A stretch of DNA of 4,252 nt from a virus. Lineage: Duplodnaviria; Heunggongvirae; Uroviricota; Caudoviricetes. Location of the stretch: the IMG/VR virus record IMGVR_UViG_2671180430_000008. One strand, given 5' to 3'. Numbering within the stretch: position 1 is the first letter of the stretch; each line of letters starts with the position of its first letter. The translations under genes were made by a program, and so were the position numbers. This document shows, piece by piece, positions 1-4,252 of this stretch. The notes below the pieces were generated by a model. It ran no database searches. It saw nothing but the letters and a program-made list of their open reading frames with translations, and had not been told where the DNA came from.

Positions 1-2
1 AT

Positions 3-50
3 ATTGAAGAAGCATGGGCTGAGCGGCAGTTAAAAAAGGTAACTAGGTAA
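3..50 (+). CDS. 3' end of an upstream CDS running off the left edge; by position possibly the C-terminus of a Q-like late antiterminator
   Basis: Open frame from the window edge (...IEEAWAERQLKKVTR*) stopping at 48-50, just upstream of a pR'-like promoter. Frame is ambiguous: another frame stops at 31-33. Too short to identify. Confidence 0.25.
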   Translation: MEEAWAERQLKKVTR

Positions 51-55
51 CAAGG

Positions 56-83
56 TTGATTTTTCCGGAATCTGTGGTAAATT
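56..83 (+). promoter_or_regulatory. pR'-like late promoter (-35 TTGATT 56-61, 16-nt spacer, extended -10 TGgTAAATT 75-83)
   Basis: Good sigma70 match. The segment 76-98 (ggtaaattcgtcataacgatggg) closely resembles the lambda pR'/qut region as I recall it (GGTAAATTTGACTCAACGATGGG). A terminator follows about 50 nt downstream, as with lambda 6S RNA. Confidence 0.55.
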
Positions 84-130
84 CGTCATAACGATGGGCG
101 TTTTATGCCTGACGTTAGAAGAGTTTCTAC

Positions 131-154
131 AACCCGCCGCCGAGCGGGTTTTTT
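131..154 (+). terminator. tR'-like rho-independent terminator
   Basis: Stem aacccgc (131-137) / gcgggtt (144-150), 6-nt loop, T-run 149-154. Lies downstream of the pR'-like promoter. Confidence 0.7.
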
Positions 155-274
155 ATGACTGAAATCGCGTCAGTACAGTAAACGCGCTGGTGGCGGTGAA
201 TACCTGTCTTTCAGCTTGCTGGCTTTTTCGACAAGAGTTATTGGTGTGTCACGTTAACCGGAAAAGGAAAAGAC

Positions 275-472
275 ATGCTAAAACAGCAGGATATGACAGA
301 AACCGCCAGAGTGGTGTTTAATGAATTAAGCGTTACCGAACCGGCGACAGTCGGGGAGATAGCGCAGAATACTTACCTTTCACGCGAACGCTGCCAGTTA
401 ATACTGACCCAGCTGGTTATGGCGGGTCTGGCAGACTATCAGTTCGGTTGTTACAGACGCCTTCCGCAGTGA
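275..472 (+). CDS. Small (65 aa) winged-helix/HTH-like DNA-binding protein, function unknown (PapI/FaeA-like pattern is a guess)
   Basis: Shine-Dalgarno AAGGA at 264-268, 6 nt before ATG 275. Segment TVGEIAQNTYLSRERCQLILTQLVMAGL looks like a helix-turn-helix. Uses rare AGA and ATA codons matching the downstream tRNAs. Stop codon lies inside the terminator hairpin. Confidence 0.55.
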   Translation: MLKQQDMTETARVVFNELSVTEPATVGEIAQNTYLSRERCQLILTQLVMAGLADYQFGCYRRLPQ

Positions 473-482
473 AGGCTTTTTT
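459..482 (+). terminator. Rho-independent terminator overlapping the stop of the 65-aa ORF
   Basis: Stem gccttc (459-464) / gaaggc (471-476), loop cgcagt, T-run 477-482. Confidence 0.6.
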
Positions 483-500
483 ATTTGTGGTAAATGGGCG

Positions 501-529
501 GCTGGTGGGTGTTAGGGGCACCCACCAGC
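501..529 (+). promoter_or_regulatory. Perfect 11-bp inverted repeat (stem-loop or operator-like site) in the leader of the methyltransferase gene
   Basis: gctggtgggtg (501-511) and cacccaccagc (519-529) are exact reverse complements, 7-nt spacer, no T-run after. Further hairpins at 572-590 and 595-613 precede ATG 623. Confidence 0.4.
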
Positions 530-622
530 CATCTGCTCATGCGTTGGGTTCACAAGCAAACCTCAGGCCCACTGCTTTGCGCAAAAGCAGAATGAGCCTA
601 TCAGAGACAGGCTTAATGATCC

Positions 623-1681
623 ATGCTTAATACTGTAAAAATATCCAGTTGTGAGTTAATCAACGCCGACTGCCTGGAATTTATCCGGTCGTTACCCGAA
701 AATTCTGTTGACCTGATAGTCACGGACCCGCCGTACTTTAAAGTGAAGCCTGAGGGCTGGGATAACCAGTGGAAGGGCGACGATGATTACCTGAAGTGGC
801 TGGACCAGTGTCTGGCGCAGTTCTGGCGGGTGCTGAAACCTGCCGGAAGTCTTTACCTGTTCTGTGGTCATCGCCTGGCATCTGATATCGAAATCATGAT
901 GCGTGAACGCTTCAGTGTGCTGAACCATATTATCTGGGCGAAGCCGTCCGGACGCTGGAACGGATGCAACAAGGAAAGCCTGCGGGCGTATTTCCCCGCC
1001 ACAGAGCGCATTCTGTTCGCGGAACATTATCAGGGGCCGTATCGTCCGAAAGATGCCGGGTATGCGGCGAAGGGCAGTGCACTGAAACAGCATGTGATGG
1101 CCCCGCTGATTTCTTACTTTCGTGATGCGCGAGCTGCCCTGGGGATAACGGCAAAACAGATTGCAGATGCCACAGGAAAGAAAAACATGGTGTCGCACTG
1201 GTTCAGTGCCGGTCAGTGGCAGTTGCCGAATGAAAGCGATTATCTGAAATTACAGGCGCTGTTTGCCCGGGTGGCAGAAGAGAAGCATCGGCGTGGTGAA
1301 CTGGAAAAGCTCCACCACCAGCTGGTGGATACGTATACCTCACTGAACCGGCAGTATGCGGAGCTGCTGAGTGAATATAAACATCTGCGGCGGTATTTTG
1401 GCGTGACGGTGCAGGTGCCGTATACCGATGTGTGGACGCATAAACCGGTGCAGTTCTATCCCGGGAAACATCCGTGCGAAAAACCGGCAGAAATGCTGCA
1501 GCAGATAATCAGCGCTAGCAGTCGTCCGGGTGACCTGATTGCAGATTTTTTCATGGGGTTGGGTTCGACAGTGAAAGCGGCACTGGCGCTCGGGCGTCGT
1601 GCAATTGGCGTTGAGCTGGAGACTGAACGTTTTGAGCAGACGGTTCGGGAAGTACAGGATTTAGTCAGCCAGAACGGATGA
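623..1681 (+). CDS. Beta-class DNA methyltransferase (N6-adenine type by DPPY motif; N4/N6 MTase family), apparently orphan
   Basis: 352-aa ORF. Catalytic motif IV DPPY at aa 35-38 (nt 725-736) after LPENSVDLIVT; AdoMet motif I DFFMGLGST at aa 308-316 (nt 1544-1570). Order IV...TRD...I is the beta-class arrangement, unlike Dam. No endonuclease gene nearby. Weak SD. Confidence 0.88.
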   Translation: MLNTVKISSCELINADCLEFIRSLPENSVDLIVTDPPYFKVKPEGWDNQWKGDDDYLKWLDQCLAQFWRVLKPAGSLYLFCGHRLASDIEIMMRERFSVLNHIIWAKPSGRWNGCNKESLRAYFPATERILFAEHYQGPYRPKDAGYAAKGSALKQHVMAPLISYFRDARAALGITAKQIADATGKKNMVSHWFSAGQWQLPNESDYLKLQALFARVAEEKHRRGELEKLHHQLVDTYTSLNRQYAELLSEYKHLRRYFGVTVQVPYTDVWTHKPVQFYPGKHPCEKPAEMLQQIISASSRPGDLIADFFMGLGSTVKAALALGRRAIGVELETERFEQTVREVQDLVSQNG

Positions 1682-1721
1682 TATTGAAGAATTAATTACG
1701 CGTCGTTATTATGCGGCTCCC

Positions 1722-1797
1722 GGCCCTTTAGCTCAGTGGTGAGAGCGAGCGACTCATAATCGCCAGGTCGCTGGTTCAAATCCAGCAAGGGCCACCA
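1722..1797 (+). tRNA. ileZ: tRNA-Ile2 (anticodon CAU, read as lysidine-CAU decoding AUA); formally could be elongator tRNA-Met
   Basis: Manual cloverleaf: acceptor ggccctt/aagggcc, D-arm gctc...gagc, anticodon loop ctCATaa, T-arm gctgg-ttcaaat-ccagc, discriminator A, encoded CCA. G1-C72 so not initiator. Near-identical in outline to E. coli ileX as recalled. ileZ symbol by analogy to Stx phages. Confidence 0.85.
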
Positions 1798-1804
1798 TCA
1801 CATA

Positions 1805-1881
1805 CCGCCATTAGCTCATCAGGAAAGAGCGCCAGCCTTCGAAGCTGGCTGCGCGGGGTTCAAGTCCCCGATGGCGGTCCA
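1805..1881 (+). tRNA. tRNA-Arg (anticodon UCG)
   Basis: Manual cloverleaf: acceptor ccgccat/atggcgg, D-arm gctc...gagc with A20, anticodon stem ccagc/gctgg, loop ctTCGaa (C35 present), T-arm cgggg-ttcaagt-ccccg, discriminator U, encoded CCA. This Arg isoacceptor is not in the E. coli K-12 chromosomal set as far as I recall. Confidence 0.75.
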
Positions 1882-1894
1882 TTATCTGCATCAT

Positions 1895-1971
1895 GCGTTG
1901 TTAGCTCAGCCGGACAGAGCAATTGCCTTCTAAGCAATCGGTCACTGGTTCGAATCCAGTACAACGCGCCA
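1895..1971 (+). tRNA. tRNA-Arg (anticodon UCU, decodes AGA)
   Basis: Manual cloverleaf: acceptor gcgttgt/acaacgc, D-arm gctc...gagc with A20, anticodon stem attgc/gcaat, loop ctTCTaa, T-arm actgg-ttcgaat-ccagt, discriminator G, encoded CCA. Confidence 0.88.
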
Positions 1972-1985
1972 CACTTATTTTCCCT

Positions 1986-2011
1986 GGCTCGCTTTTGCGG
2001 GCCTTTTTTTT
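1986..2011 (+). terminator. Rho-independent terminator after the tRNA cluster
   Basis: Stem ggctcgc (1986-1992) / gcgggcc (1997-2003) with one G-U pair, loop tttt, then 8 T (2004-2011). Confidence 0.75.
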
Positions 2012-2458
2012 AAATGTCTCACAATTCAGACGGTTGACAGTTGTCTGTTTTGCGGGGAGTTTGTTAAAAGAAACTGGCATGGTGAATCCCCCTGTGCGGA
2101 GGGGCAATCAGCGAGTAGGTATATGGGATAATCGCGGATTCAGGTGCTGGTACTGAATTCACCGGGAGGCACCCGGCATCATGCAATGGCACATAGCGCC
2201 ACTCTCCAGCCCTCTCCGGAGGGGCTTTTCTGTGCCGGATACATCACAGTTTCTGGAACCTTAGGTACTACAGTATCAGTCAGGGTGCTATATTTTCAGA
2301 TGTGATGAAAGCCTGTCAGCAGGCAGGGCGTATCGGAAATGACCCAGTAGAGAAAACGTTGACTCAGATACCGGTGCTGAGTTACCGGGAAACCGGCATC
2401 ACATGACCGCTATCCTGAGGTGTACTGGCAATAGCGGACACTACCATTTGTTCTTTTT

Positions 2459-3277
2459 TTAAGCAGCCATCTGATGATATTTTTCCCTGAAGGCTGCCGG
2501 GGAGATATTCCCCAGACGAGAGTGACGACGCTGACGATTGTAGAAAATCTCAATGTATTCCCGTATTACTGAGATGGCTTCATCCCGGTTATTAAAACGA
2601 TAGTGGCTCAGGCTCTCATTTTTCAGCGTTCCCCAGAAGCTTTCCATCGGAGCGTTGTCGTAACAGTTACCTTTACGCGACATTGATGTTTTCAGACCAG
2701 ACTGCTCCTGTATGACCCGGTAATCGTATGCGCAGTACTGTGAACCTCGATCAGAGTGGTGGATTAGCCCGGCAGGTGGGCGCTGGCTCCTGAGCGCCAT
2801 AAACAGGGCTTTACCTGTCAGCTCTTTTGTCATGCGCTCTCCCATGGCGTAGCCGACAATTTCGCACGTATAAACATCTTTGATGCCAGCGAGGTACAAC
2901 CATCCCTCCTGTGTGGCAACATACGTCAGGTCCGCCACCCAGACCTGATTTGGTGCTGTAGGAGCGAACGTCTGGTTCAGCAGATTTGGCGCAACTGGCA
3001 GATTGTGGTTCGAGTTCGTAGTCGCTCTGAACTTGCGTTTCTGCTTACAGCGTAGCCTTAGCTCCTTACGAAGACGTGCCAGTCGGTCACGACCAACGAT
3101 GATGCCATTCTCTGCCAGCTCCGTCTGGAGCCGCCGGGTTCCATATGTTTCGCGAGTGCGGATATGTGCCACCTTAATCTCCAGTTTTAGCCGCTCATCA
3201 CTTTGTTTTCTGTCTGAGGGTTCATGCTGTACCCAGTTGTAATAACCGCTCCTGGATACACCAAATACCTGACACAT
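2459..3277 (-). CDS. IS3-family transposase OrfB (DDE integrase/catalytic core)
   Basis: 272 aa from first Met. DDE-type segments WVADLTYV, HHSDRGSQY, CYDNAPMESF. N-terminal region EAMCQVFGVSRSGYYNW matches the IS3-family OrfB pattern. Normally expressed as an OrfAB fusion by -1 frameshift. Confidence 0.9.
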   Translation of the reverse strand: MCQVFGVSRSGYYNWVQHEPSDRKQSDERLKLEIKVAHIRTRETYGTRRLQTELAENGIIVGRDRLARLRKELRLRCKQKRKFRATTNSNHNLPVAPNLLNQTFAPTAPNQVWVADLTYVATQEGWLYLAGIKDVYTCEIVGYAMGERMTKELTGKALFMALRSQRPPAGLIHHSDRGSQYCAYDYRVIQEQSGLKTSMSRKGNCYDNAPMESFWGTLKNESLSHYRFNNRDEAISVIREYIEIFYNRQRRHSRLGNISPAAFREKYHQMAA

Positions 3278-3312
3278 CGCTTCAATGGGAAATTGTTGTC
3301 GCCATTGTTCGA

Positions 3313-3438
3313 TTAACGCGTATTTTTCAGCGACTCCTGTGCAAAATACGCTGTTGCTTTTTTTAATATATCTCGCTCAAGGCGAGCTTCATTTAACGCC
3401 TTACGAAAACTCCGGAGGGGCTGTTTATATTGATTTTG
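3313..3438 (-). pseudogene. Remnant of IS3-family orfA (C-terminal ~41 codons only)
   Basis: Minus-strand frame reads QNQYKQPLRSFRKALNEARLERDILKKATAYFAQESLKNTR*, stop at 3313-3315. An in-frame TGA lies at 3439-3441; no HTH-encoding N-terminal part follows. Confidence 0.6.
3358..3366 (-). other. Programmed -1 frameshift slippery site (A-run followed by G) at the orfA/orfB overlap of the IS
   Basis: Minus strand reads TTA AAA AAA GCA in the orfA frame (T7 at 3358-3364 on plus). OrfB lies in the -1 frame relative to orfA. Confidence 0.55.
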
Positions 3439-3454
3439 TCAGATGTGAGTAAAC

Positions 3455-3488
3455 TCCTTATGGACTTTGTTGTTTTAGTCCATAAGGA
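3455..3488. repeat. Perfect 11-bp inverted repeat with 12-nt spacer
   Basis: tccttatggac (3455-3465) and gtccataagga (3478-3488) are exact reverse complements. Overlaps the stop codon of the 111-aa ORF and lies about 15-50 bp from the IS truncation point. Confidence 0.45.
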
Positions 3489-3793
3489 CATATTTGCAGA
3501 GTGCAACGGTTATTAAAGCATTCATTCAATACGTTATCTGTATTTGTAGGGCATTCCTGGCTATTTTTGATTGAATTCCAGAATGTTTTATTGAATGGTA
3601 CTACGTTGTAAATGGTTACAGGTAGCACTTTGTTATTGAGCATGATGCCTGTGTGAGTCAGTGTAAATATACTTTCAGGAGGTAAGAAAGCATCCGATTG
3701 ATACCAGATTATTAATTTTATTTTACTCCATATGACTGAAAAAGATATTCCGCATGATGGCTGGATAACTGTATCAATCACAATCCACTTCAT
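3458..3793 (-). CDS. Hypothetical protein, 111 aa, in the AT-rich island; unknown function, possibly the N-terminal fragment of a larger gene cut by the IS-associated deletion
   Basis: ATG at 3793 with Shine-Dalgarno AGGAAA (plus 3798-3803) and a sigma70-like promoter upstream. Trp-rich N-terminal half; four Cys at C89/C100/C105/C110. Its 3' end abuts the IS deletion junction. No family recognised. Confidence 0.45.
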
Positions 3794-3833
3794 TTAGTTT
3801 CCTTGTTTATGCCTTGCTGGTGATGTTCTGAAA

Positions 3834-3860
3834 AGTATAAATGATATTTTTGAATGTAAA
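3834..3860 (-). promoter_or_regulatory. Candidate sigma70 promoter for the 111-aa ORF (-35 TTTACA, -10 TATACT on minus strand)
   Basis: Minus strand -35 is plus 3855-3860 (tgtaaa), -10 is plus 3834-3839 (agtata). Spacer is 15 nt (short). The -10 lies about 40 nt upstream of the ATG. Confidence 0.3.
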
Positions 3861-4053
3861 CCATAGAGCAGAATTATTTTTCTGATGTTGTTTATTGTTT
3901 ATTTAAATGCAGGGTGGTTTATATCTCGTCTTGTAGTTTATCCATGCATATCTGCTTGATAATCAGGTTTTTATTTAAGGTATGGTTTTGTGTTTTTTCT
4001 GTATTACATGTCAGGTATTTTAAAGAATTATTTTTCAGATGGTGGAAAGAACC

Positions 4054-4180
4054 ATGGCATTTAAACACTATGATGTTGTCAGGGCGGCGCCGCCGTCAGA
4101 TCTTGCGGAAAAGCTGACACATAAACTGAAAGAGGGCTGGCAGCCGTTTGGTAGTCCGGTGGCCATAACCCCTTATACCC
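4054..4180 (+). pseudogene. 5' portion of a small phage gene (DUF1737-like, recalled from memory) interrupted by IS insertion
   Basis: Start ATG 4054 with GGAAAG-type SD (alternative ATG 4039 has none). Encodes MAFKHYDVVRAAPPSDLAEKLTHKLKEGWQPFGSPVAITPYT, then the frame runs directly into the IS terminus at 4181. Confidence 0.55.
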
Positions 4181-4252
4181 TGAGGTGTACTGGCAATAGC
4201 GGACACTACCATTTGTTCTTTTTTTAAGCAGCCATCTGATGATATTTTTCCC
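4181..4252 (-). mobile_element. Right end of a second IS3-family (IS600-like) copy, same orientation as the first, continuing past the window
   Basis: 4181-4252 is 72/72 identical to 2416-2487. Flanking 3 bp are ccc here and tcc at copy 1, so these are independent insertions. Confidence 0.85.

Follow-up and report, generated by a model that had tools for sequence, protein, structure and literature searches.

Gene content of the late region

The window (the whole stretch of 4,252 nucleotides that was analysed) is the late-regulatory region of a lambdoid prophage, and its features are collected in Table 1. Positions 1-156 cover the 3' end of the gene for the antiterminator Q together with its downstream leader and share 99.4% identity with the corresponding DNA of Escherichia coli CFT073. 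Inspection of positions 60-156 (+ strand) by eye additionally showed a promoter-like TTGATT...TAAATT and, behind it at about 131-156, a GC-rich stem with a T-run, an arrangement that fits the pR'/tR' late leader annotated in 933W. Between Q and the methyltransferase gene lies a conserved open reading frame (ORF) of 65 aa (275-472, + strand), which is annotated in EC0026B as a 'hypothetical protein' (WP_000917761.1) and gave only a sub-threshold match to a TrmB-type winged helix (18 bits, cutoff 25.6).

The methyltransferase gene is followed by a cluster of tRNA genes, the ileZ-argN-argO set that Stx-type late regions typically carry. The ileZ tRNA reads AUA after lysidine modification. The first tRNA of the window (1722-1797) was called Met (CAT) by ARAGORN, while RefSeq and the homologue in the 933W record give tRNA-Ile (ileZ type). 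Downstream of the cluster, an STnc100-like sRNA with a GC-rich terminator at 2207-2229 was identified, and in intact relatives an element of this kind is the left neighbour of the AT-rich segment described below. A degenerate second STnc100-like unit (2276-2464, 21.8 bits) is cut by IS600 at 2416. STnc100-like sequence is found as well just downstream of stxB in 933W, and a 2026 preprint ties STnc100 to the PasD sRNAs of Stx-type prophages.

The first IS600 copy is truncated: it retains an intact orfB transposase (2459-3277) and lacks the left inverted repeat along with the 5' part of orfA, and its alignment with a full IS600 copy diverges past 3405. Four filler bases (AAAA, 3406-3409) come next, and likeness to other prophages picks up again at 3410 with the right half of a GC-rich terminator stem; the left half was lost at the IS600 junction, and an intact copy of the same stem is the one at 2207-2229. 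On the far side of the AT-rich segment the late operon resumes with a start codon that opens a full-length SASA esterase of 617-618 aa in EC0026B and S. sonnei, and L0105 in 933W. The small gene preceding the lysis cassette, which the sequence-only reading had named as the right neighbour, is indeed the neighbour; it is in fact the N-terminal DUF1737 domain of this 617-618-aa esterase, cut short by the second IS600.

Table 1. Features of the window, with coordinates, strand and the basis of each assignment.
Feature	Position	Strand	Remarks
N6/N4 DNA methyltransferase	623..1681	+	Pfam PF01555, E = 8e-42; late region
tRNA cluster	1722..1971	+	CAT-anticodon tRNA, then Arg-TCG and Arg-TCT
STnc100-like prophage sRNA and terminator	2048..2237	+	Rfam RF02076, 123.6 bits (gathering score 47)
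IS600, truncated	2416..3405	-	990 of 1264 bp; 100% identity to Shigella plasmid IS600 copies over 990 bp
Terminator stem, right half	3410..3420		GC-rich stem of the STnc100-like unit; by comparison with EC0026B and CFT073
iraL cassette	3421..4052		AT-rich accessory segment of about 630 bp; from GC and the divergence points of relatives
Perfect hairpin, 12 bp	3455..3488	-	overlaps the last iraL codons and the stop; MFE -22.3 kcal/mol, z = -2.5
iraL CDS	3458..3793	-	111 aa and stop; RssB anti-adaptor, IraM/IraL family
Shine-Dalgarno region AAGGAAAC	3797..3804	-	ends 3 nt ahead of the ATG; read from sequence
iraL transcription start site (TSS)	3826	-	32-nt 5'-RACE string of PMC4045071 matches 3826-3795 in 31 of 32 bases
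-10 hexamer TATACT	3834..3839	-	7 nt upstream of the TSS; same in CFT073
-35 hexamer TTTACA	3855..3860	-	15-nt spacer; same in CFT073; hexamer assignment inferred
DUF1737 / nanS-p esterase gene start	4054..4180	+	first 42 codons; Pfam DUF1737, E = 1e-15; cut by IS600 at 4181
Second IS600, end	4181..4252	-	oriented as the first copy; runs off the window; self-match of 4176-4252 to 2411-2487

Composition and limits of the AT-rich segment

The GC content of positions 3439-4053 was computed as 32.7% against 50.9% in 1-3409, which bears out a depression that had earlier been estimated by eye (about 30% against about 50%). The long ORF of this island has a GC content of 34.5% and the 260-bp intergenic stretch 3794-4053 one of 29.6%, compared with 53.2% in the methyltransferase gene, 56.0% in the tRNAs and 49.5% in the IS DNA. 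All 615-bp segments within 1-3409 have a mean GC of 51.8% (sd 1.8%, minimum 47.3%), and the island thus lies about 10 sd below the rest. Codon usage deviates likewise, with a GC3 of 0.33 in the ORF versus 0.60 in the methyltransferase gene, and the sliding GC profile agrees with the figures for the island as a whole.

Comparison with relatives allowed both ends of the cassette to be placed. At the left end, beyond the common terminator stem, the window, CFT073 and EC0026B no longer follow S. sonnei 53G and 933W. The right end is the base preceding the DUF1737 ATG, and likeness to Stx phages and to prophages lacking the cassette begins at 4053, one base before that ATG. The limits 3439-4053 drawn by the sequence-only reading are well chosen. 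Its statement that the island holds a single credible ORF also agrees with the ORF list, which gives one long ORF there, on the - strand. Three further ORFs (3501-3611, 3914-4117 and 3919-4068) were set aside as chance ORFs, being unannotated in all relatives examined. The Rfam search returned no RNA family within the island.

Identification of the ORF as iraL

The protein encoded by the long ORF shares 110 of 111 residues with IraL of CFT073, the sole change being L74S, and the DNA of the cassette (3410-4183) is 99.2% identical to that of CFT073 over 774 bp. IraL, known from E. coli CFT073 and Shigella, is an anti-adaptor of RssB, the name having been given to a CFT073 paralogue of IraM with 58.9% identity (Hryckowian et al., mBio 2014, PMC4045071). 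The iraL gene of CFT073 sits in the potB-side prophage, matching the description in that paper. Furthermore, the NCBIfam IraM model NF007393 matched residues 1-110 of the window protein with 162 bits (cutoff 121), and K-12 IraM aligned to it without gaps at 61% identity. A phmmer comparison with the crystallised IraM core (PDB 8twd_A, residues 1-78) gave E = 6e-31 with 50 of 78 residues identical; judged by sequence alone, the protein belongs to the IraM core fold, which consists of a beta-barrel, a beta-hairpin and a helix (residues 1-78). Among the 15 residues by which IraM contacts RssB (clusters I-III and Pro66; list from PMC10844676), 11 are identical in the window protein and four are substituted (T13S, L75I, H63N and I64V). 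In RefSeq, the gene under the match is named 'anti-adapter protein IraM' and is followed by the DUF1737 gene. None of these sequence comparisons yielded anything that would speak against the identification as IraL.

The ORF had earlier been left without assignment to any known toxin, effector or defense family. That statement no longer holds, as the gene is iraL and has been characterised; the toxin, effector and defence readings were dropped once the identity with IraL was established. Pfam offered no family for the ORF at E <= 0.01 nor at E up to 10, and its lone line, Nairovirus NSm at E = 0.056, was dismissed as meaningless.

Promoter and transcript signals of iraL

The promoter of iraL can be regarded as experimentally mapped, because the published sequence from 5' RACE in CFT073 (PMC4045071) maps to position 3826 on the - strand of the window. 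The promoter is of the sigma-70 type and stands on the strand opposite to the late operon, in accordance with the earlier suggestion that the ORF has a promoter of its own. The -10 hexamer was invariant across the 80 iraL loci found in IMG/VR, and position 3856, the C of the -35 hexamer on the - strand, was altered in 17 of the 80 (seven substitutions and ten 1-bp deletions). The window carries the CFT073-type base at this position. A '-35 point mutation' has been reported for iraL2 of JJ1886 (PMC4045071), and the variant or deletion at 3856 probably corresponds to it.

A generic promoter scan missed the mapped iraL promoter, since the 15-nt spacer lies outside the range of 16-18 used by the scan. 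The two 'promoters' that the scan placed on the - strand (3901-3873 and 3742-3715) were rejected, as such hits were no more numerous than in shuffled sequences.

At the 3' end of the gene, the 12-bp hairpin is possibly a transcript-end or stabilising structure. It has no U-run, and the terminator scan found no terminator on the - strand. The GC-rich stem located further downstream of iraL belongs to the sRNA of the + strand and is half deleted here.

Distribution of the cassette and its slot in the late operon

A megablast search of positions 3400-4100 against 5426 complete E. coli genomes, a set without Shigella, detected the segment in 2009 of them, with at least 80% coverage in 1428. At 95% identity or more, the cassette is present in about 26% of complete E. 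coli genomes, and nearly all matches show 95-99.6% identity. The gene order in CFT073, 042, EC0026B and vB_EcoS-640R1, the last of which is an induced phage carrying the iraL cassette, reads Q, (methyltransferase), tRNAs, DUF3927, STnc100-like element(s), iraL (antisense), DUF1737/nanS-p and holin. In the IMG/VR IraL loci (n = 80), the AT-rich intergenic region and the DUF1737 start were attached in every case, the STnc100-like element was found in 77 and the methyltransferase gene in 41.

Neither 933W nor the S. sonnei methyltransferase prophage, both of which share the two flanks, contains the cassette, and relatives without iraL carry about 230 bp of 46-51% GC in its place, ahead of the same nanS-p start codon. 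This presence in CFT073, 042, EC0026B and vB_EcoS-640R1 and absence from 933W and the S. sonnei methyltransferase prophage corroborates the sequence-only reading, in which the segment was variable cargo of the Q-to-holin interval running against late transcription: iraL is encoded on the - strand, and Q, the methyltransferase, the tRNAs and nanS-p on the + strand. Conservation and annotation as part of the phage backbone had been named as the outcome that would count against cargo; the segment is indeed conserved and carries annotation, yet it does not form part of the backbone. The iraL gene displays three of the features by which morons are recognised, namely its own promoter, a deviant composition (GC and GC3) and presence or absence in collinear relatives. 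These comparisons support the view that the iraL cassette is horizontally acquired accessory cargo in a lambdoid prophage.

The place of the cassette had to be corrected in one respect. The earlier proposal put it at the toxin position occupied by stxAB, whereas it lies one slot further, between the STnc100-like terminator and the start codon of nanS-p/DUF1737. In 933W, stxAB (3275-4515 of the locus) is situated between the tRNA terminator and the STnc100-like element, and the STnc100-like similarity is found at 4557-4738. Because stxAB of 933W precedes this similarity, the slot of iraL adjoins that of stx. Like stxAB and other morons, iraL is accessory cargo of atypical GC content in the Q-to-holin interval and patchy among related phages. 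Whereas stxAB precedes the STnc100-like element and is read in the direction of late transcription, iraL follows that element in antisense orientation and is driven by a constitutive promoter of its own.

The closest counterpart is the CFT073 locus, with the same gene, TSS and promoter hexamers in the same slot, from the STnc100-like element with the tRNAs to DUF1737 and holin. The two differ in the L74S change of the window protein, which is typical of S. sonnei, and in their surroundings: the cassette of the window is attached to a methyltransferase-bearing prophage arm and bracketed by IS600, and CFT073 has IS200C upstream of the tRNAs.

Proposed action of IraL on RpoS

According to the proposed mechanism, iraL has a sigma-70 promoter of its own, would be transcribed against the phage late operon and therefore could be expressed in the lysogen. 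The 111-aa product would bind the response-regulator-like adaptor RssB. In this bound state RssB would fail to bring RpoS, the sigma factor of the general stress response, to the ClpXP protease, and RpoS would therefore be stabilised, already in exponential growth.

These steps are taken from published work. [quoted passage not shown] In the crystal structure of IraM, the anti-adaptor bridges both domains of RssB and occludes the 4-5-5 face to which RpoS binds, which keeps RssB from passing RpoS on to ClpXP (PMC10844676). The structure may not transfer in detail to IraL, since IraL, unlike IraM, bound only the N-domain of RssB in the two-hybrid assays (PMC4045071). For the protein encoded in the window, RssB binding and RpoS stabilisation are predicted by analogy with the CFT073 allele and the S. 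sonnei deletion mutant.

In sum, the AT-rich island is the iraL cassette of a lambdoid prophage, with iraL a moron that has its own promoter and its product expected to bind RssB so that RpoS is stabilised, a reading to which we assign a probability of about 0.93.

State of the iraL copy in the window

The IS elements around the cassette raise the possibility that iraL of the window, intact in sequence, belongs to an IS-riddled, defective Shigella-type prophage and is decaying, its activity weakened or abolished by L74S or by the loss of downstream sequence. The truncated IS600 reaches to within 53 bp of the iraL stop codon, half of the adjoining terminator stem having been lost to it, and the next late gene, DUF1737, is cut by the second IS600. 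The L74S change, moreover, replaces a leucine conserved in IraM and CFT073 IraL and adjoins the RssB-contact residue L75. The expression signals tell against such decay: the reading frame is complete, no change is seen in the promoter hexamers, the TSS or the Shine-Dalgarno region, and the 12-bp hairpin that overlaps the 3' end of the ORF has been retained. The L74S allele is moreover fixed on many complete S. sonnei chromosomes; the exact protein was found on all eight complete or near-complete chromosomes returned for it, including S. sonnei 53G, and in 4016 collection blocks. Deletion of iraL in S. sonnei lowers log-phase RpoS (PMC4045071). Impairment of the present copy is considered improbable. 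We infer continued expression and activity of this copy, chiefly from the deletion phenotype published for S. sonnei, where the strain and allele of the mutant may differ from those of this copy.

The junction at 3405/3410 deserves separate mention. Positions 1-3405 match an S. sonnei methyltransferase prophage on the ompW side at 99.9-100%, where IS600 is full length and no iraL follows. Positions 3410-4252 match another S. sonnei locus at 100%, including the IS600 within DUF1737, and an identical IS600 insertion in the DUF1737 gene is found on S. sonnei chromosomes. The two loci, which agree with the two sides of the junction at 99.97% and 100%, lie about 0.67 Mb apart in CP104423.1. Exact-protein matches of IraL and of the methyltransferase likewise fell on S. 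sonnei chromosomes, at two separate loci. The IS600/iraL junction had no exact match in public genome, viral or metagenome contig collections, and one IMG/VR contig carries the methyltransferase arm and the L74S iraL cassette in the same prophage without the 3405/3410 junction. The junction may have arisen through an IS-associated rearrangement particular to one strain, or as a chimera of the assembly; the identification of iraL is unaffected by its nature.

Relation to IraM, RssC and PmrD

The name given to the gene by RefSeq and NCBIfam, together with the 61% identity to IraM, suggests that it could instead be the orthologue of K-12 iraM, induced through PhoP by Mg2+ starvation and acting on both domains of RssB. 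A PhoP-box-like direct repeat with one mismatch is present at 3889-3905, 63-79 bp upstream of the iraL TSS. Such a match is at the level of chance, with 1.39 expected and at least one found in 151 of 200 shuffled sequences, and on this ground IraM-like regulation was rejected. The protein shares 110 of 111 residues with IraL against 61% with IraM, and likeness of the DNA to the K-12 locus stops at the ends of the coding region, from which it follows that the promoters of iraL and iraM are unrelated. The matches of iraL and iraM do not overlap and their binding to RssB domains differs, IraM binding both and IraL the N-domain only (PMC4045071). Mg2+ starvation and other stress that hinders growth induce IraM, whereas IraL acts in unstressed log phase (PMC10844676, PMC4045071); the unrelated upstream DNA and the chance PhoP box fit this reported difference in regulation. 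Orthology with iraM is therefore very improbable.

The paralogue IraM (YcgW) of K-12 is likewise a small AT-rich gene (34% GC) adjoining prophage DNA, its locus lying next to e14, unlike that of iraL. The K-12 iraM gene and its upstream DNA were both found to be AT-rich (34% and 27% GC; locus coordinates 7681-8260) and located just outside the annotated end of e14, beside the icdC remnant; the IraL paper places iraM on e14 (PMC4045071). RssC of Salmonella belongs to the same anti-adaptor family, with about 49% identity to iraL according to PMC4045071.

The least credible reading, in which the gene encodes a PmrD-like connector acting on another two-component response regulator, for instance by protecting phospho-PmrA, draws on the superposition of the IraM fold on PmrD at about 1 A r.m.s.d. 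(PMC10844676) and on a precomputed contig-index annotation that labels the window protein PF11183 PmrD, but current Pfam gives no PmrD match even at E = 10 and IraL binds RssB and stabilises RpoS (PMC4045071).

Significance and a possible wider role of the cassette

With the identification as IraL, an apparent 'unknown cargo gene' is struck from the list of candidates. The gene, its promoter, the target of its product and its patchy distribution are all already known, having been published in 2014 and annotated in RefSeq, and the finding itself is therefore of little weight. The slot of the cassette can now be given exactly, from the terminator of the STnc100-like sRNA to the nanS-p start codon, adjoining the stxAB slot and distinct from it. 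Roughly one in four complete E. coli genomes has this phage-borne means of raising RpoS in growing cells.

A wider reading combines three proposals, and we consider it rather doubtful that all three hold together. First, the iraL cassette might be an interchangeable version of the short leader that precedes nanS-p, moving among lambdoid prophages, including relatives of Stx phages, with the flanking STnc100-like repeats and the start of nanS-p serving as sites of homologous recombination. Second, with iraL antisense within the late operon, Q-dependent late transcription might shut it off by collision upon induction, and RpoS stabilisation would then be a lysogen-only trait. Third, the L74S change of S. 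sonnei, beside an RssB contact residue, might tune the strength of the RpoS effect. If true, this would be an extension of a known gene and no new system. The L74S change (window position 3573, codon 74) and a linked synonymous change at 3563, which set the allele apart from those of CFT073, 042, EC0026B and 640R1, were found together in 5 of the 80 IMG/VR loci.
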